Source: Sphingomonadales bacterium
Lineage (GTDB): Bacteria; Pseudomonadota; Alphaproteobacteria; Sphingomonadales; Sphingomonadaceae
Direction: 5' to 3'
DNA length: 64,000 bases
Assembly (NCBI GenBank): GCA_031400695.1
Contig: JANNQI010000013.1
Span: 188 to 64,187, forward strand
In this document: positions 1 through 8,543 of the stretch, one piece after another
Layout of the letters: every line of letters begins with the position of its first letter
How positions within the stretch are numbered: position 1 is the stretch's first letter
Position numbers and translations under genes: made by a program
The notes under the pieces: generated by a model
The model's database searches: none
What the model saw: the letters and a program-made list of their open reading frames with translations, nothing else
What the model was told of the DNA's origin: nothing

Positions 1-693
<693 letters not shown>

Positions 694-702
694 ACGCGCG
701 CC

Positions 703-730
703 GTCACGGCAATTTTCCTTTTGCCGTGAC
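703..730 (+). terminator. Hairpin downstream of thiC (possible intrinsic terminator)
   Basis: Perfect 10-bp inverted repeat gtcacggcaa(703-712)/ttgccgtgac(721-730) with an 8-nt T-rich loop. The downstream tract is AT-rich but has no clean U-run. Confidence 0.45.
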
Positions 731-884
731 ATATTGTTGCAAATGTTTACGCTAAAGCCACTGCTGACCTCCGACTCGCTTAGTTTTTTGGGCAGAACGC
801 GACAGGGCTGAGTGTTCCCGACTGGTTGTTTGCACTGGCGTTAGGCCGTGCGCCCCGAATCTCGGCCTGCAACAGGAGAGAGAC

Positions 885-1343
885 ATGAACAAGTTAATCA
901 AGATTTGTATCTTTGCGTCTGCGGTCGCGAGCGCAAATGTCGCGCACGCACGAAGCTATGTGTTTCAAACGGTCGAAAAAACCAACGAGGCTGTTAGCGG
1001 TGCACGGCCCGATGGCACTGTGTTTGCTGGGCAAATGACGACTGGAACCATCGAAAGCACGTGGCAGGACGGCAAGAAAACGACCGGTACGTACAAATGC
1101 ATGGGTGTCAGCATGCCGCCAAATGACTCGACCTACAGCTTCCGCATTGTTTGCGAAAGCACGGGCGCAGAAGGCAGTAGCTCGACGATTTGGGGATGCA
1201 CCAACCCGGGCAAGGATACCGGAACAGTCCTGTGCACAGGCTGGGCATTTGGCAAGACCGGCATTTATGCGGGCAAACGCGGCACGATGACCTTTGCCGG
1301 TGCTGGCGGAAAAGGCAGCGGAACCGGTAACTGGGATATGTAG
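885..1343 (+). CDS. Secreted hypothetical protein (cassette 1)
   Basis: ATG preceded by aggagaga. N-terminal signal peptide MNKLIKICIFASAVASANVAHA. Mature part is Gly/Thr-rich with several Cys. No family recognised. Confidence 0.7.
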   Translation: MNKLIKICIFASAVASANVAHARSYVFQTVEKTNEAVSGARPDGTVFAGQMTTGTIESTWQDGKKTTGTYKCMGVSMPPNDSTYSFRIVCESTGAEGSSSTIWGCTNPGKDTGTVLCTGWAFGKTGIYAGKRGTMTFAGAGGKGSGTGNWDM

Positions 1344-1376
1344 CCGCAATCAGCGATAGTCAGGGATGAAGCGAAA

Positions 1377-1412
1377 GGGCGCCGCGTCGGTAATATCGCG
1401 GCGTCCTTTTTT
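1377..1412 (+). terminator. Rho-independent terminator after cassette-1 gene
   Basis: 10-bp stem gggcgccgcg/cgcggcgtcc (one G-U pair), a 10-nt loop, then TTTTTT at 1407-1412. Confidence 0.75.
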
Positions 1413-1485
1413 AATTGGAAACCGAGGGTTTTATTGCGACATGGGAGGCGGCCTGTCCGCTATAGCTTTAGCGAAGGCGGAAAGA

Positions 1486-1557
1486 GGCATGGCGGAGATG
1501 AGCAAGGTCTCGGCCGCGAGCGATATATGGGCGCTGGTGATCGGGAGCATGATTGAG
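1486..1557 (+). repeat. thiC 3'-end repeat, copy B (displaced, non-functional)
   Basis: ggcatggcggagatgagcaaggtct..gcgagcgatatatgggcgctggtgatcgggagcatgattgag aligns to 610-693 with an internal deletion. It lies inside the remnant ORF 1366-1569. Confidence 0.8.
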
Positions 1558-1584
1558 CGGCCGAGTTGAATTGGACCGGATCGA

Positions 1585-2082
1585 ATGACCGCTTATGATT
1601 ACGAGCTCATGTTCAACCTCTCTTTGGTGATTGGCCATGCTGACCATCGAACGGAGACTAGTGGCTTTCCTGACAGTGGTAAAACCTCGACTGTCTTGAG
1701 GGCGGCATTTGTCACATGGTTGGTCGCATGTGAGGAAGCTCGCGCGCAAATTCGAACCAACGATCCAAAGGCTAGCTTTGTAAGACATGTAATTGAATTT
1801 TTGCCTGACGATGACGATCCAGCTTGGGAGCAAACAAACTCGGTGGGGTTTCATGCTTCACTGAAAAATAGAATGCGGGCTCTCTGGGGTATACGGATTG
1901 CCTTTACGCATTCAGATGGCGATATTTTAAAGATTGGAAGTTCTAATAACAGAGAATGGGCGGGATTTGCGCATTTATATGTCAAAGGTGTTACGATGAA
2001 CGAAGACATAATTGACATGTCGCAAGCTGACTTGCACTATATTCATCGGAGCTTTGCTCAACTTCAGACGGTTCTGGTTTAG
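1585..2082 (+). CDS. Hypothetical cytoplasmic protein (cassette 2, AT-rich)
   Basis: 165-aa ORF. Composition is visibly AT-richer than the flanks. No recognisable motifs. Confidence 0.55.
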   Translation: MTAYDYELMFNLSLVIGHADHRTETSGFPDSGKTSTVLRAAFVTWLVACEEARAQIRTNDPKASFVRHVIEFLPDDDDPAWEQTNSVGFHASLKNRMRALWGIRIAFTHSDGDILKIGSSNNREWAGFAHLYVKGVTMNEDIIDMSQADLHYIHRSFAQLQTVLV

Positions 2083-2126
2083 TTTTTAAGTCAACGATAC
2101 CATCGACGTGGTTTTAGCAAGAGGAT

Positions 2127-2204
2127 ATGTCAAAGTTGAGCAAGGTCTATGACACGACCGGGCGTGAGCGATTTTTTGGCGCTGGTGATCGGATCATGAT
2201 TGCG
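2127..2204 (+). repeat. thiC 3'-end repeat, copy C (displaced, decayed)
   Basis: atgtcaaagttgagcaaggtctatgacacgaccgggcgtgagcg...ggcgctggtgatcggatcatgattgcg aligns to copies A and B. It shares the ggcgctggtgatcgg variant with copy B. Confidence 0.8.
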
Positions 2205-2229
2205 GTGGATCACATGCAAAGGGGGCAAC

Positions 2230-2733
2230 ATGAAGGATATTAACGCAATTGAAGCTCAACTCGTGAGAACATTGAGCTTTTTTCCTCGTGTCGATACAAA
2301 AGTATCAGGTCTTTTCACGGTAAACTCTGCCATCTTGACCATCAGTGCGCTCAATGTTGAGGCTGGCGACTTGCGCCACTGGTATGTTGCAATTCCGGGA
2401 ATTTTATTGGTTATCGGGCTGATCGCATCATACATATTTCTTTATCGATGCAATTTTCCAGAATTGGAAGGCGGGCAGGGTAGCCTGATCTACTTCGCAG
2501 AGGTACAAAAACGAACAGAGCCTAGCTACGTTTCTGATTATGAAGCGGCAAGTGAAAGCAGTTACCGCGCCGACTTGCTTGGTCAAATCTGGCGTAACTC
2601 GCAAATACTCTGTATGAAATATGAGGCAATTGCTATGGCGATCCGGACTACCTTAGCAACGCTCGTTCCATTTGCGGCCTTTCTTATTATGACAGCGATC
2701 GAACACACCCGCCTGCCAGTTTTGAATAGCTAA
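2230..2733 (+). CDS. Three-TM membrane protein, candidate Pycsar-type effector (PycTM-like)
   Basis: ATG at 2230 follows aaaggggg. Predicted TM segments are VSGLFTVNSAILTISALNV, WYVAIPGILLVIGLIASYIFLY and AIRTTLATLVPFAAFLIMTAI. A soluble linker carries LLGQIWRNSQILCMKYEAI. The stop lies 4 nt before the cyclase ATG. Confidence 0.7.
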   Translation: MKDINAIEAQLVRTLSFFPRVDTKVSGLFTVNSAILTISALNVEAGDLRHWYVAIPGILLVIGLIASYIFLYRCNFPELEGGQGSLIYFAEVQKRTEPSYVSDYEAASESSYRADLLGQIWRNSQILCMKYEAIAMAIRTTLATLVPFAAFLIMTAIEHTRLPVLNS

Positions 2734-2736
2734 ACA

Positions 2737-3444
2737 ATGGCACTAAAGGACGATCTAACCAACTCGGTCAAAGGCATTTTGGGCAAAACCTTCAAAGAGC
2801 GGGATGGGCAGAAAATCCCGACCTCTGAAGATATCTCGCTTACCGATGGAGCGGTTAAGCTTGATGCTGCATTTCTTTACGCAGACCTTGCTGGCTCTGG
2901 CATGATTGCAAAGCAATGCCCTTGGGATACCACAGCCAAAATTATACGTGCCTATTTGGACTGTGCCACGCGCATTATACGCGCGCACGGAGGAGAAATT
3001 CGCAGCTTTGACGGTGACAGGGTGATGGGTGTGTTCATTGGAGAGGCAAAAAGGACCAATGCTGTAAAATCGGCAATGAAAATACAGTGGGCAACCGAGC
3101 ACATAATTGAACCAGAAGCTAAATCGAGATTTAACTCGGTAAAGAACAATGATGTCAAAATAAAGCAGGCCTGCGGTGTCGATGTTGGTATAAGCAGAGC
3201 CGTCCGCGCTGGTATCCGAAATAACAATGACATTATTTGGATTGGCCGCCCACCAAGCTTTGCAGCCAAACTCTCGGATAATCGTGAATACCCTTATTGT
3301 ACTTTTATTTCCGAGGCCGTTTATAAGAACATGGCAGACGAAACTAAATTTGCGAACGGCAACAGCATGTGGGAAAGCCGCGCAACAAATTTCGCTGGCG
3401 TCAATGAAACCTGTTACCGCTCCAATTATTGGTGGAAACCATGA
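2737..3444 (+). CDS. Stand-alone class III nucleotidyl cyclase (PycC-like; product nucleotide unknown)
   Basis: Cyclase catalytic-core motifs are present: AFLYADLAGSG and HGGEIRSFDGDRVMGVF (the two metal-binding Asp), then GVDVGISRAVRAGI...IWIGRPPSFAAKLS. There is no sensor or regulatory domain. 235 aa. Confidence 0.8.
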   Translation: MALKDDLTNSVKGILGKTFKERDGQKIPTSEDISLTDGAVKLDAAFLYADLAGSGMIAKQCPWDTTAKIIRAYLDCATRIIRAHGGEIRSFDGDRVMGVFIGEAKRTNAVKSAMKIQWATEHIIEPEAKSRFNSVKNNDVKIKQACGVDVGISRAVRAGIRNNNDIIWIGRPPSFAAKLSDNREYPYCTFISEAVYKNMADETKFANGNSMWESRATNFAGVNETCYRSNYWWKP

Positions 3445-3474
3445 GGCATTCAAAGGTTGCCGTGGCAGTTCACT

Positions 3475-3595
3475 AATTCTCCGGCACCAACATCTCCACC
3501 AGCCGCCGCAGTTCTCCCGCTGTCGTTGCCCCACGACTACCTCATGACAGCCGATACCCGCCCCCGCGCAGCGTGGGCCTTTCACCGCGTCCCTT
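3475..3595 (-). repeat. DUF2726 3'-end-derived repeat R1 (decayed, frameshifted)
   Basis: Minus-strand reading gives RDAVKGPRCAGAGIGCHEVVVG, then in another frame ATTAGELRRLVEMLVPEN*. Compare the intact gene tail at 4162-4290. Confidence 0.75.
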
Positions 3596-4161: not shown

Positions 4162-4800
4162 TTAGCCCCCCGGCACCAACTTCTCCACCAGCCGCTTCAA
4201 CTCGCTCGGCGTCGTGTGCCCTGCCACTACCTCATGATAACCAATGCCCGCCGTGCGCAGCGCTTCCTTCTTCACTGCGTCCCTTGCCGCCGCCGTGCCT
4301 TGATGGTGGCCGCTGCCCTGATATTCGATTGCGTGGACCACGCGCGCGTCGGGGTCCATTAGCGCAAAGTCGACGCGCTTTGAATTGATGCATCCAAAAG
4401 CGGCCGTGTCGCGGCTTGTCAGAAACTCGCCCAATGACACCTGCGCCATCACCTGCCAGCCGGGGTTACGCGCGATGACGGCGGCGTCGAGCGCCTTGAA
4501 AAGATTGACCTCGCGCCGGTTGAGCAGGGCGCGCGCGCTGAAATCGGCGGCCATCACGCAGGCGAGCTGATCGGTCGCGCTGCCATTGGCCTTCGCCGCC
4601 TCGGCCAGCCCGTCTTTCTTTAGCGGAACAAATTTGCCGCCTTTCTTGCCTGAATTACGCCCCTGCCAATAGGCTCTGCGCTCGGCCCGCTTCTGCCCCT
4701 CGACCAGCCGCTCCACAGTAATGCCCAAAACCGCACCCACCGCCAACACTGCGATGAGCACCAAAGGCCTGTCAATCAGCGCAAGAAGTTCGGGCGGCAT
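4162..4800 (-). CDS. Membrane-anchored DUF2726 (endonuclease-like fold) protein, the only intact copy
   Basis: N-terminal TM LVLIAVLAVGAVLGITV. C-terminal domain ...RVDFALMDPDARVVHAIEYQGSGHHQGTAAARDAVKKEALRTAGIGYHEVVAG... Confidence 0.75.
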   Translation of the reverse strand: MPPELLALIDRPLVLIAVLAVGAVLGITVERLVEGQKRAERRAYWQGRNSGKKGGKFVPLKKDGLAEAAKANGSATDQLACVMAADFSARALLNRREVNLFKALDAAVIARNPGWQVMAQVSLGEFLTSRDTAAFGCINSKRVDFALMDPDARVVHAIEYQGSGHHQGTAAARDAVKKEALRTAGIGYHEVVAGHTTPSELKRLVEKLVPGG

Positions 4801-4834: not shown

Positions 4835-4960
4835 TCAACGCCGCCCCGCGACCACCTGATGACAGCCGATGCCCGCACGCAGCGCTTCCTTCTTCACCGC
4901 GTCCCGCGCCGCCGCTGTGCCTTGATGGTGGCCGTTGCCCTGATATTCGATTGCGTGCAT
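4835..4960 (-). repeat. DUF2726 3'-end-derived repeat R3 (5'-truncated copy, 41-codon remnant ORF)
   Basis: Minus strand reads MHAIEYQGNGHHQGTAAARDAVKKEALRAGIGCHQVVAGRR*. It begins 4 nt after the stop of the upstream gene 4965-5537. Confidence 0.8.
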
Positions 4961-4964
4961 TCTA

Positions 4965-5537
4965 TCACCCGCCAAGCGGCATTGTCAGAGTGAGCGCGGC
5001 GCTCAACACCAGCGCCAGTGGCACCAGCACGGCGTGGACTCGCCGCGATGGCACCATGGCCAGCACGCCCGCTACGACGAGGCCAAGCCAGAAGTCGCGC
5101 ATCGAAACGATCACCGGCCAGCTTATCCCGGGCTTTATCACGCCCGCTGCGATCAGGAGCGCATAGAGCGCCACAAAGCTGGTCCAGATGTACCGCTTGC
5201 GCGCTTCGTAATGCGCCGCGAGATCAACATTCTTGCGCGCCGCAGGTTCGGGCAATACTGCGCGCGCGGTCAGGTATAAAGCGACCAGTTGCGCGAGGAT
5301 CAGCACGAACTGCCAAAGCTGCACGTCGGGGCCGGTCGAGCGCAGCGTGCGCCACGACGTCCACCATCCGGCAACGATGTTGAGCGTCACGAATGCCGCG
5401 ACCGACAGCAACAGCCAGTCCCAGCGCACCTGTCGGCGCGCCACGATCAAATGGTGCAGGTTGGATATCAGCGTCGAGATCGCCAAGCCGGAAATGATCG
5501 CCAGCAGGCCGAGAACATATCCGCCTTGGTCCGTCAT
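4965..5537 (-). CDS. Polytopic membrane protein, unknown function
   Basis: 190-aa ORF with about 5-6 hydrophobic helices (LGLLAIISGLAISTLI, LLLSVAAFVTLNIVAGWW, FVLILAQLVALYL ...). Confidence 0.65.
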   Translation of the reverse strand: MTDQGGYVLGLLAIISGLAISTLISNLHHLIVARRQVRWDWLLLSVAAFVTLNIVAGWWTSWRTLRSTGPDVQLWQFVLILAQLVALYLTARAVLPEPAARKNVDLAAHYEARKRYIWTSFVALYALLIAAGVIKPGISWPVIVSMRDFWLGLVVAGVLAMVPSRRVHAVLVPLALVLSAALTLTMPLGG

Positions 5538-5625
5538 TTTCCCCCCATTCAGCTATGACCGATGCCACCGATATTCAGGTTATCACGGGAATCCCAGGGG
5601 TGCTATATAGATTACTCACTCACCC

Positions 5626-5800
5626 TCAGGCACCAACTTCTCTCGTCTCCGCCGCAGCTCTCCCGCTGTTATGTGCCCCGCGCTGCATGATAGCCGATGC
5701 CCGCCTTGCGCAGTGCTTCCTTCTTCACCGCGTCGCGCGCGGCGGCGGCGGCGGGACTCGCTGCCCTTGCCTTACCTGCCCATATCGTTACCGTGATTTC
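5626..5800 (-). repeat. DUF2726 3'-end-derived repeat R4 (decayed, frameshifted)
   Basis: Minus strand reads ...AAAAARDAVKKEALRKAGIGYH, then after a shifted frame ITAGELRRRREKLVPEGE*. Confidence 0.75.
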
Positions 5801-5879
5801 CTGGTCGTCGATGCCGCGTTCATATTTGCTGCGCAGGCGGTGGGGCGGACATCGATGCTGGCATAGGGGAGGCACCGAA

Positions 5880-6428
5880 ATGACACTCGAACAGCTCAGC
5901 CTGATCGCTCAAATCCTCAGCGTGCTGCTGATCCCGGCTTCGCTGATCTTTGTCGGCATGCAGATGCGCCAGACCCATGCAATCGAGCGGGCCAACGCGC
6001 AGCGGCACGTGCTTTCGCAATGGCAGGATTGGATGAACTCGCTGGCGCAAAATGCCGAAGCCTTCGCCGACGTGCGGGATTGCCTGCATGACTATGCCGG
6101 GCAAAAAGAATTCAAGCGGCATCGGTTTTTTGCCTGGGCCTTTGAAAGCCTGTGGATCGCCGAGCAGACTCTTTATCAATGGAACGAAGGGCTGATCAAC
6201 GAGAAGCCGTTCCTCGGTTCGATCAATGCTGTTATGGCGATCATCGTGACGCCCGGCGGGCAGCAATGGTGGGTCGATGCCCAAAAGCTGGTCGGCGGTG
6301 ACATCCGGGATTACCTCGCCGAGCGGCTGGCCGGGAACGCTATCGACTTACCGCAGCAATGGCAGGACCTGGCAACGCATTTCCGGCTGCCTGAGACCGA
6401 TGGAGCAACACCGCCGCCGATGCCATAA
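5880..6428 (+). CDS. Hypothetical protein with N-terminal TM anchor
   Basis: ATG at 5880 follows aggggagg. N-terminus MTLEQLSLIAQILSVLLIPASLIFVGM. The upstream part of the 243-aa track ORF lies in repeat R4 and is not considered coding. Confidence 0.6.
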   Translation: MTLEQLSLIAQILSVLLIPASLIFVGMQMRQTHAIERANAQRHVLSQWQDWMNSLAQNAEAFADVRDCLHDYAGQKEFKRHRFFAWAFESLWIAEQTLYQWNEGLINEKPFLGSINAVMAIIVTPGGQQWWVDAQKLVGGDIRDYLAERLAGNAIDLPQQWQDLATHFRLPETDGATPPPMP

Positions 6429-6467
6429 TGTGGTGAGATAACCGTCATAGTGCGCTCATTGGCCGCC

Positions 6468-6600
6468 CCTTCAGGCACCAACTGCTCCACCAGCCGCCGC
6501 AACTCTCCCGCTGTTATCTGCCCCGCGACCACCTCATGAGTGCCGATGCCCGCCCCCACGCAGCGCTTCCGTCTTCACCGCGTGACGCGCGGCGGCGGCG
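6468..6600 (-). repeat. DUF2726 3'-end-derived repeat R5 (decayed)
   Basis: Minus strand reads AAARHAVKTEALRGGG / GIGTHEVVAGQITAGELRRLVEQLVPEG, with a frameshift between the two parts. Confidence 0.75.
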
Positions 6601-7387
6601 CTGCCGCAGAGGGTGTGGCCGCCGCGCCAACCGCGCGGCGATGCAAATGCCAGGTTGCATGGCCCAGTACCGGCAACACAACAAACAATCCGGCGAACAG
6701 CGGGAGCATGGCGAGGATCAAAGTAACCGCGATCAGCACCGCCCAGGCGATCATGATCGGTTTGTTGGCGCCGAACACGCTCAGGCTAATGATGATCGCG
6801 GTGATGAAATCCACGTCGCGGTCGACCAGCACCGGCAGGCTGACCACCGTGATCGCAAACAGCGCCAGCGCGAACAGCCCGCCGACCACACCGCCAACGC
6901 CCAGCATTAGCAATGCATCAGCCGAAAGCAGCAAAGCCCCGGATTCCGAACCGATCCCGCTGTCCCCCAGAAAGATCGCGAAAATGCCGTGGGCCAGGAT
7001 CATCCAGAAACTGAAGGCCACAAAGATGATGCCGCCCATCATCAACAATTGCTCGTCGCCCCGGCCCTTGAGCGCGCCGAGCACCGCGCCCCATCGCATC
7101 GGTTCGCCTGCTTCGCGCCGCCGGCTGACTTCAAACAGCCCGACGGCGGAAAAGGGCGCCAACAGGGGAAATCCCGCCATCAGCGGGATCAGCCACCAGC
7201 CCTGGCCGACGCGCGACAGGCCGTAAAGAAGGGTCAGGCCTCCGGCGACATAAAAGGCGGCAAAGAACAGGCCGAACAACGGGTAAGCGGCAAAGTCCCG
7301 CCATCCGGCGGCAACAGCGGAACTCAGGTCCCGCAGGGTCAAATCCCGTGCGAGACTGACCTGTGCCAAGGGCGAAGAAACGCTCAC
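6575..7387 (-). CDS. DUF2189-like integral membrane protein (start uncertain: GTG 7387 or ATG 7459)
   Basis: LRDLSSAVAAGWRDFAAYPLFGLFFAAFYVAGG..., multiple TM helices, and a C-terminal GHATWHLHRR. The first 24 codons of the 294-aa ORF lie in repeat R6. The last roughly 10 codons run into R5. Confidence 0.7.
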   Translation of the reverse strand: MSVSSPLAQVSLARDLTLRDLSSAVAAGWRDFAAYPLFGLFFAAFYVAGGLTLLYGLSRVGQGWWLIPLMAGFPLLAPFSAVGLFEVSRRREAGEPMRWGAVLGALKGRGDEQLLMMGGIIFVAFSFWMILAHGIFAIFLGDSGIGSESGALLLSADALLMLGVGGVVGGLFALALFAITVVSLPVLVDRDVDFITAIIISLSVFGANKPIMIAWAVLIAVTLILAMLPLFAGLFVVLPVLGHATWHLHRRAVGAAATPSAAAPPPRVTR

Positions 7388-7411
7388 GATGTGAAGTCTG
7401 CCGCAAAGCGG

Positions 7412-7475
7412 CGACCGATGCAACCGCGCCCAATCGCCACGCTGCGATTCCTTCTTCACCGCCGCCTCAACGACA
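7412..7475 (-). repeat. DUF2726 3'-end-derived repeat R6 (short, decayed)
   Basis: gcggtgaagaaggaatcgcagcgtggcgattgggcgcggttgcatcggtcgcc aligns with the AVKKEALR..GIGYH coding segment of 4162-4800. Confidence 0.55.
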
Positions 7476-8473: not shown

Positions 8474-8543
8474 TTCCCCGGCATCAACTTTTCCAAGCCG
8501 CCGCAGCAGCCCTCCCGCTGTTCTGTGCACCGCTACCACCAAC
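8474..8543 (-). repeat. DUF2726 3'-end-derived repeat R7 (last ~25 codons only)
   Basis: Minus strand reads VVAVHRTAGGLLRRLGKVDAG, compared with VVAGQxTAGELRRLVExLVPG in other copies. It starts directly after the stop of 8545-8916. Confidence 0.65.

Follow-up and report, generated by a model that had tools for sequence, protein, structure and literature searches.

A probable two-gene Pycsar system in the thiC–yaiI gap of a Sphingomonadales genome

A 64,000-nucleotide (nt) stretch of contig JANNQI010000013.1 from a Sphingomonadales bacterium (assembly GCA_031400695.1; hereafter the window) carries, between the convergent genes thiC and yaiI, two adjacent genes, for a stand-alone cyclase and a PycTM effector, that very probably make up a Pycsar anti-phage system with no component missing. 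An earlier reading of this DNA, made without database searches (the sequence-only reading), had proposed a Pycsar-like pair here and recognized it correctly; the pair is not new, but a catalogued subfamily member in a typical defense hotspot. The analysis shows directly that the two genes are intact, tightly spaced and of foreign composition, which families they belong to, how their order compares with that in relatives, that key residues are conserved and that the site is a defense hotspot. The Pycsar identity of the pair was confirmed by full-length matches of both proteins to PADLOC models, an effector score above the Pfam cut-off for PycTM and a PycC enzyme as the best solved-structure match of the cyclase.

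The cyclase and effector genes

Both open reading frames (ORFs) were found where the sequence-only reading had placed them, separated by a 3-nt spacer (Table 1), and the motifs it had listed (FLYADLAGSG, FDGDRVMGVF, VGISRAVRAGI and IWIGRPPSFAAKLS) were all present. The PADLOC scan that it had suggested returned full-length Pycsar matches for both proteins. The cyclase matched PycC model PDLC00766 with an E value of 1.5e-93, covering model positions 1-231 of 232, and PDLC02367 with an E value of 6e-89 over the full length. By sequence, its best relative among solved structures was BcPycC (PDB 7R65; E 1.7e-38, residues 2-231), an enzyme from Burkholderia cepacia LK29 that is classed as a clade B uridylate cyclase (PMC11224242), whereas photoactivated and CyaC-type cyclases matched weakly (E 4e-5 to 1e-3). 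Structure comparison, also proposed earlier, agreed: with an AlphaFold2 (AF2) model of the cyclase (predicted local distance difference test score (pLDDT) 82, predicted template modeling (pTM) score 0.78), the top Foldseek match was again 7R65 (E 2e-20, template modeling (TM) scores 0.86/0.88), followed by the Anabaena uridylate cyclase 8JSZ, while ordinary adenylate and guanylate cyclases reached TM scores of 0.6-0.67 at most. An N-terminal α-helix is a hallmark of PycC cyclases (PMC11224242); in the AF2 model such a helix is predicted at residues 2-15, and the alignment with 7R65 begins at residue 2. The end-to-end alignment with the 229-aa BcPycC bears out the description of the protein as a catalytic core with no additional domain. 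A PHROGs scan of the pair gave a single weak match, in which the cyclase hit a functionally uncharacterized family, and an NCBIfam scan of the pair and of two neighboring genes, ORF165 and ORF152, gave zero matches.

The effector matched PADLOC model PDLC00692 (Effector/2TM) with an E value of 8.9e-81 over positions 1-166 of 167 and PycTM model PDLC02363 with an E value of 2.1e-41. It also scored 49.4 bits against Pfam PF18967 (PycTM, formerly DUF5706), for which the gathering cut-off is 27.2. PF18967 was present in all 75 effector relatives, and those held by NCBI are named 'Pycsar system effector family protein'. Membership of the PycTM family, previously left open, is thereby settled. Three hydrophobic helices with a soluble linker had been described for this protein; a Kyte–Doolittle scan supported two of them as strong segments (~aa 51-72 and 134-156) and the linker, a soluble stretch of ~60 residues (~aa 73-133) between the second and third segments, while the remaining helix (~25-43) appeared only as a weaker segment. 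PADLOC names the family '2TM', and it has been described as comprising pJV1-spdB3-type three-transmembrane (3TM) proteins (preprint 10.64898/2026.08.12.744502), a description that the hydropathy of the effector fits. A sequence search of solved structures, in a copy of the PDB older than the EcPucTM structure, found no relative of the effector.

The effector stop codon TAA occupies 2731-2733 and the cyclase ATG begins at 2737, as read from the sequence. Translational coupling of the two genes is likely, and they are probably co-transcribed with the effector first. For the effector, the start at ATG-2230 was favored over a TTG at 2200 because the PADLOC model aligns over positions 1-166 of 167 to the product beginning at ATG-2230. 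The composition of the pair is foreign to its surroundings: its G+C content is 46.3% and its G+C at third codon positions (GC3) 47%, compared with 63-65% G+C in the flanks and a GC3 of 76-81% in the flanking core genes thiC, yaiI and DUF2726. The hand-counted values of the sequence-only reading proved accurate (39.3% G+C for 2230-2290 and 65.0% for 1-60).

Gene order was surveyed in 102 loci of cyclase relatives from genomes, metagenomes and viral contigs, reduced to 84 non-redundant loci. A PycTM homolog lay directly upstream on the same strand in 41 of the 84 and directly downstream in 7; in 10 it was found elsewhere in the locus, and in 9 the contig was too short to judge. The remaining 17 loci had no PycTM homolog, several of them carrying effectors with a cyclic-nucleotide (cNMP)-binding or TIR domain instead. 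Effector-first order, thought unusual beforehand, is therefore the norm for the subfamily, given 41 loci versus 7. PycTM and PycC genes in relatives are spaced by 5-15 nt or overlap by 4 nt. Effector-first pairs also occur in Sphingopyxis, Gluconobacter and Bradyrhizobium (with a 4-nt gene overlap in Bradyrhizobium) and on a conjugative plasmid of Sphingobium baderi, where the pair sits beside AbiEi/AbiEii and its effector carries a Pycsar annotation. Identity is 82-84% for the closest cyclase relatives (metagenomic, Tsuneonella and Sphingopyxis) and 77% for the best effector relatives. Cyclase relatives are patchily distributed over four orders (Sphingomonadales, Rhodobacterales, Acetobacterales and Hyphomicrobiales) and occur on plasmids and in viral sequences, among them 12 IMG/VR contigs. 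In other genomes, the neighbors of the pair include AbiE, prophage genes and a further Pycsar-like system whose effector is a cNMP-binding TIR protein.

In Sphingopyxis, Gluconobacter and Tsuneonella loci (L002–L004, 1772-6711; L088, 1-4708; L001, 1894-6711; L numbers denote retrieved loci), the PycTM–PycC pair adjoins a second, larger cyclase. This neighbor, of the 'Pycsar-like-4' type, works with a cNMP-binding TIR effector and comes with E2-like (or E1/JAB) genes. The PycTM gene of Tsuneonella has moved to the far side of the Pycsar-like-4 system. These arrangements suggest modular shuffling between two cyclic-nucleotide systems.

Predicted signal, mode of action and opposing evidence

The signal of the window system is predicted to be 3′,5′-cyclic UMP (cUMP). 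BcPycC has been shown experimentally to make cUMP and serves as an enzymatic source of it (PMC9117128; PMC11224242). Its residues Y50, D94 and R97 form a restrictive pocket that accepts uracil (PMC11224242; preprint 10.64898/2026.08.12.744502), and this Y/D/R triad sterically disfavors guanine (preprint 10.64898/2026.08.12.744502). In an alignment of 118 cyclase homologs with BcPycC, the corresponding window residues are Y48, D92 and R95, kept in 117, 118 and 117 of the 118 homologs, respectively, and the metal ligands D50 and D94 (BcPycC D52 and D96) are kept in 117 and 118. The prediction of cUMP follows from this conservation of the triad and of the metal-binding aspartates, at 38% identity to BcPycC; the nucleotide product, which the sequence-only reading had considered unresolved, can thus be predicted from aligned residues.

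The pair was acquired horizontally, from a donor of lower G+C content, into the gap between the convergent core genes thiC and yaiI. By analogy with characterized systems, we infer the product, the dependence on a trigger, the disruption of the membrane and a phage-resistance phenotype, as follows. Two PycC subunits would pair head to tail in a dimer without activity in uninfected cells; on phage infection, the enzyme would cyclize UTP to 3′,5′-cUMP with the help of two metal ions bound by D50 and D94, a tight base pocket of Y48, D92 and R95 being expected to admit a pyrimidine and exclude a purine. The cUMP would bind the soluble region of the PycTM effector, which may then oligomerize or open in the inner membrane so that membrane integrity collapses. 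The cell would be killed or arrested before phage progeny mature, that is, by abortive infection. To our knowledge, no phage trigger is known for Pycsar systems generally.

Several observations weigh against the assignment. The window cyclase and BcPycC are only 37.8% identical. At codon 174 (nt 3256-3258), the window enzyme and 116 of 118 subfamily members have Ser, where BcPycC has Asn (N172). This site is that of the canonical class III transition-state Asn, within the motif G-R-x-x-N-x-A-A-K (also written G-x-x-x-N-x-A-A-K), so that the enzyme could differ in kinetics or even in chemistry. The check suggested earlier for the cyclase, Pfam Guanylate_cyc (PF00211), gave no match even at E ≤ 1. 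Scans that are weak for alphaproteobacteria detected no sigma-70-like promoter upstream of 2230 and no intrinsic terminator downstream of 3444. Finally, two genes that occupy the same gap in relatives, AbiU (L006) and Drt8 (L014), are split and are probable pseudogenes or frameshifts; cargo of this hotspot therefore decays and is not always functional.

The low identity to BcPycC and the subfamily-wide Asn-to-Ser change in the catalytic motif would suit an alternative in which the same architecture uses a purine signal, the pair being a Pucsar-type, cyclic GMP (cGMP)-producing or cyclic AMP-producing relative rather than a cUMP Pycsar. Such enzymes have a precedent: cGMP is the product of stand-alone Pycsar-like cyclases of a sister subclade, which have 3TM or TIR effectors of the same kinds (preprint 10.64898/2026.08.12.744502). 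We nonetheless consider a purine signal improbable: the guanine-disfavoring triad is kept in 117-118 of 118 homologs (PucC enzymes being compared by description only), both of the top structural matches are to uridylate cyclases and the match to the PycC model of PADLOC is full length. For studies of PycC catalysis, the subfamily-wide substitution offers a simple target.

The possibility that the pair is an inactive or silent relic, acquired but no longer expressed or triggered and decaying like other hotspot cargo, draws on the split AbiU and Drt8 genes, on the gene-end fragments that litter the region and on the lack of a promoter-like site in a scan poorly suited to alphaproteobacteria. It is set against ORFs that are full length relative to profile hidden Markov models (HMMs; 1-166 of 167 and 1-231 of 232 positions), catalytic and selectivity residues that are all intact, a preserved Shine–Dalgarno-like site and 3-nt coupling, and an identical copy of the pair in an independent assembly. 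On balance, a relic appears distinctly improbable, and an intact Pycsar system remains the preferred reading.

The missing PF00211 match was judged harmless. Precomputed Pfam annotations of the relatives looked up show no family on the ~235-aa cyclases and a faint PF00211 on the larger neighboring cyclases. Class III cyclases are common regulators in alphaproteobacteria, and several databases label relatives of the window enzyme merely 'adenylate/guanylate cyclase', as might be expected if a small cyclase and a membrane protein served housekeeping cyclic-nucleotide signaling unrelated to phages. However, it is the defense-specific HMMs that match and the generic Pfam cyclase model that does not; the distribution is patchy over four orders, plasmids and viral contigs; the composition of the pair is foreign; the locus is a hotspot in which defense systems are swapped; and the pair lies near AbiE, a second Pycsar-like system or prophage genes in other genomes. 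A housekeeping role is accordingly very hard to credit, and we retain the assignment to Pycsar.

The thiC–yaiI hotspot and its cargo

The yaiI product is 86-91% identical to its counterparts in Sphingorhabdus metagenome-assembled genomes, which places the window in a Sphingorhabdus-like sphingomonad. Of the 80 related loci that were retrieved, 29 have thiC and yaiI as convergent neighbors, with gaps that vary from 154 bp in the effectively empty L044 to 6.5 kb. Nucleotide comparison with eight relatives showed that homology to the window ends sharply at 690-694, the thiC stop codon, and resumes at 3481 (L006 and L008), 3596 (L010 and L014) or 3626 (L009, L012 and L013), L007 giving merely a weaker 3480-3595 match placed elsewhere. 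The variable region was therefore delimited as 691-3480.

Pycsar genes were found in none of the 80 related sphingomonad yaiI loci. Gap DNA of the nearest relatives has 43-53% G+C, compared with 58-63% in its flanks, and contains other defense genes, namely AbiU, a dCTP deaminase, PDC-S45, Drt8 or SoFic as matched by PADLOC (Table 1). The thiC–yaiI gap is thus a core-gene-flanked defense hotspot in Sphingorhabdus-like sphingomonads, in which defense systems replace one another. Variable presence at the thiC 3′ locus, for which the sequence-only reading had proposed to compare related genomes, was observed, as the pair was missing from 80 of 80 loci with other defense cargo in its place; together with the foreign composition, this swapping of cargo upholds the view of the pair as a mobile module. 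Low-GC cargo in the gaps of L012 and L013, both from related Sphingorhabdus metagenome-assembled genomes, comprises candidate defense genes by position. Within the window, a PADLOC scan of the 43 ORFs of at least 200 aa returned only single weak REase_II and DolB matches besides the pair, and no other complete system.

Table 1 Positions of the genes, gene-end fragments and hotspot cargo discussed in the text
Feature	Sequence	Position	Strand	Description
PycTM effector gene	Window	2230-2733	+	167 aa from ATG
PycC cyclase gene	Window	2737-3444	+	235 aa; stand-alone class III-type nucleotidyl cyclase, predicted uridylate cyclase
Shine–Dalgarno-like AAGGGGG	Window	2219-2225	+	4 nt before effector ATG; putative function
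Spacer ACA	Window	2734-2736	+	3 nt, between effector stop and cyclase ATG
Variable hotspot region	Window	691-3480		Three accreted segments; 49% G+C versus 63-65% in flanks
Cargo segment 1	Window	691-1421		Holds ORF 885-1343
Cargo segment 2	Window	1422-2107		thiC-end copy 2 and ORF165
Cargo segment 3	Window	2108-3480		thiC-end copy 3 and Pycsar pair
Resident thiC 3′ end	Window	594-691		Real copy
Displaced thiC 3′-end copy 2	Window	1422-1557		Starts second cargo segment
Displaced thiC 3′-end copy 3	Window	2108-2204	+	Left boundary of Pycsar segment; 49.5% G+C
ORF152	Window	885-1343	+	152 aa; signal-peptide-like N terminus; first segment after thiC
ORF165	Window	1585-2082	+	Orphan low-GC gene in neighboring segment; not a Pycsar component
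Decayed DUF2726 3′-end fragment	Window	3481-3595 (match from 3477)	-	Right hotspot boundary; frameshifted relative to intact gene
Intact DUF2726 gene	Window	4162-4800	-
Further DUF2726 3′-end fragments	Window	4842-4957, 5623-5746, 6468-6596, 8475-8534	-	Orientation of intact gene
Displaced thiC-end fragment	L184	8169-8744
Displaced thiC-end fragment	L010	11177-11266
Displaced thiC-end fragment	L007	13731-13823
AbiU	L006	6078-7814		Gap cargo, split into two ORFs; PADLOC 1.7e-31, 1.2e-28
dCTP deaminase	L008			Gap cargo; PADLOC 3.5e-159
PDC-S45, trypsin-like protein	L009			Gap cargo; PADLOC 2.1e-13
Drt8 reverse transcriptase	L014	1818-3494		Gap cargo, split into two ORFs; PADLOC 1.3e-89, 7.8e-34
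SoFic	L007			Gap cargo; PADLOC 1.6e-113
592-aa protein	L012	10652-12430		Gap cargo; low GC; no PADLOC or Pfam match
341-aa protein	L013	11732-12757		Gap cargo; low GC; no PADLOC or Pfam match
193-aa protein	L013	11181-11762		Gap cargo; low GC; no PADLOC or Pfam match

Displaced copies of the thiC 3′ end begin the second and third segments of the variable region. The thiC-end repeat reported to the left of the pair is real, and a further copy lies upstream of it (copies 3 and 2 in Table 1). Copy 3 is 76% identical to the resident end over 66 nt and was probably carried in from the donor. It shares with copy 2 derived bases that are missing from the resident end; these shared bases, together with the ~46% G+C of both segments, suggest common or related donors. 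The DUF2726-end repeat to the right of the pair is likewise real and decayed, but it is a resident boundary and not a part of the cassette: it is contiguous with yaiI, and homologous sequence is present from 3481 in L006 (89%) and L008 (85%), so that its inclusion in the Pycsar cassette was rejected.

The window contains six copies of the DUF2726 3′ end, counting the intact gene, and the five fragments have diverged to 61-92% identity among themselves. Past yaiI and DUF2726, they mark another zone of accretion. Fragments at 4842-6596 bracket small ORFs without a family match (4965-5537 on the minus strand and 5697-6428 on the plus strand), followed closely by a minus-strand gene for a membrane protein with DUF2189 (6575-7459).

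Displaced thiC-end fragments also mark where successive cargo segments start downstream of thiC in three relatives (Table 1). Among these is L184, in which a second piece of the thiC C-terminal region, at least 226 codons long, lies 2.2 kb downstream. The duplicated thiC pieces vary from ~85 nt in the window to at least 680 nt in L184, and a fixed att site at the thiC end is therefore unlikely. Because the piece lengths vary and no integrase lies nearby, flank-anchored recombination with imprecise joins is favored, and the pattern suggests that repeated insertion of this kind built up the cargo. The gene-end fragments illustrate how small, integrase-less cassettes would accumulate at a site flanked by core genes.

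From its start near 1560, the low-GC island also contains ORF165, which the sequence-only reading did not include. This gene belongs to a tiny family: a search of 5.8 billion proteins yielded 8 relatives, and a profile search of 1.84 billion yielded 31 cluster representatives. Its members share a block W-G-I-R-I-A-F-T-H (WGIRIA(F/Y)TH, an Rx4H motif), with an invariant R104 and nearly invariant T108 and H109. PADLOC, NCBIfam and PHROGs scans and a PDB profile search with ORF165 found nothing, and Pfam on 22 family members gave no family in more than one of them, the single hit being a weak Phage_int_M match (0.0015). An AF2 model (pLDDT 91) is mostly helical, and Foldseek searches with it against PDB and BFVD gave nothing significant, the best matches, all with E > 1, being the HEPN protein AbiV and the toxin 7BXO. 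ORF165 may be a HEPN-like toxin or defense gene, as its motif and predicted helical fold would allow; with all fold matches at E > 1, its identity as a HEPN RNase is not established.

ORF165 lies on the same strand as the pair, has the same low G+C content, is contiguous with it in the second assembly and carries an invariant Rx4H motif, as might be expected of a sensor or second effector in a three-gene system. Its relatives, however, sit after thiC or beside CcdAB, without Pycsar genes, and none was found in ~100 cyclase loci; moreover, the displaced thiC-end fragment (copy 3) between ORF165 and the pair marks a separate insertion. In L184, an 82% identical homolog begins 28 bp past a full-length thiC, a spacing identical to that in the window (1557 to 1585), and window positions 1475-2075 are 82% identical to L184 over 612 nt spanning the thiC end; in L186, a homolog lies beside ccdAB. 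A three-gene system is thus exceedingly doubtful, ORF165 was rejected as a Pycsar component and the two-gene system stands. ORF152, in the first segment, matched no family, and none of the loci fetched contained a relative.

A further alternative, which we regard as unlikely, joins two possibilities. The Ser-for-Asn PycC subfamily may differ functionally from BcPycC in its product (for example, a nucleotide other than cUMP), kinetics or activation; or the thiC and DUF2726 3′ ends may be a dedicated landing pad at which an as yet unassigned recombination process stacks integrase-less defense cassettes, with ORF165 and the L012 and L013 cargo among them as new defense genes. The preferred reading of a two-gene Pycsar system in the thiC–yaiI gap documents a defense hotspot in Sphingorhabdus-like sphingomonads, and the cargo of that hotspot (ORF165, the 592-aa protein of L012 and the 341-aa and 193-aa proteins of L013) provides cheap candidates for new defense genes.

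Comparison with known systems

The closest characterized relative of the window system is the Pycsar system of Burkholderia cepacia LK29, with the clade B enzyme BcPycC. Both cyclases are stand-alone proteins of ~230 aa with an N-terminal helix, a pair of metal-binding aspartates and the Y/D/R triad, and the B. cepacia system likewise pairs its cyclase with a small membrane effector of the PycTM family. The window enzyme differs in its 37.8% identity to BcPycC, in having Ser in place of N172 and in its sphingomonad host.

Within the same subfamily, a pair on the Sphingobium baderi SC-1 plasmid NZ_CP128177.1 (WP_092959823.1 and WP_092959869.1) has identical sizes of 167 and 235 aa. This pair and its relatives in Sphingopyxis, Tsuneonella, Acetobacter and Gluconobacter are effector-first and tightly spaced, like that of the window. 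They differ in their site, which is a plasmid, beside AbiE, or the vicinity of a Pycsar-like-4 system with a cNMP-binding TIR effector, and the S. baderi plasmid copy shares only 69% nucleotide identity with the window pair. As PADLOC models and NCBI naming already cover this subfamily, the pair adds little as an instance of Pycsar.

Pucsar (PucC with PucTM or PucTIR; preprint 10.64898/2026.08.12.744502), the cGMP-producing sister branch, also combines a stand-alone dimeric cyclase with a 3TM effector of the pJV1-spdB3 family, and the hexameric channel of EcPucTM described there is the best available structural picture for such effectors. Compared by description, the pocket of Pucsar cyclases is permissive and accommodates guanine (Glu118 and Lys195 in PfPucC), whereas the window enzyme keeps the restrictive triad.

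The hotspot itself resembles the core defense hotspots of Pseudomonas aeruginosa (PMC10250203) and the defense islands of E. coli (PMC10121019), in which a fixed intergenic site likewise holds strain-specific cargo. All of these sites contain DNA of foreign composition without a resident integrase. The thiC–yaiI hotspot differs in its site, from the thiC 3′ end to yaiI, and in its lineage, the Sphingorhabdus-like Sphingomonadales. It differs also in that displaced 3′-end fragments of the flanking genes pile up between the cargo segments of the window.

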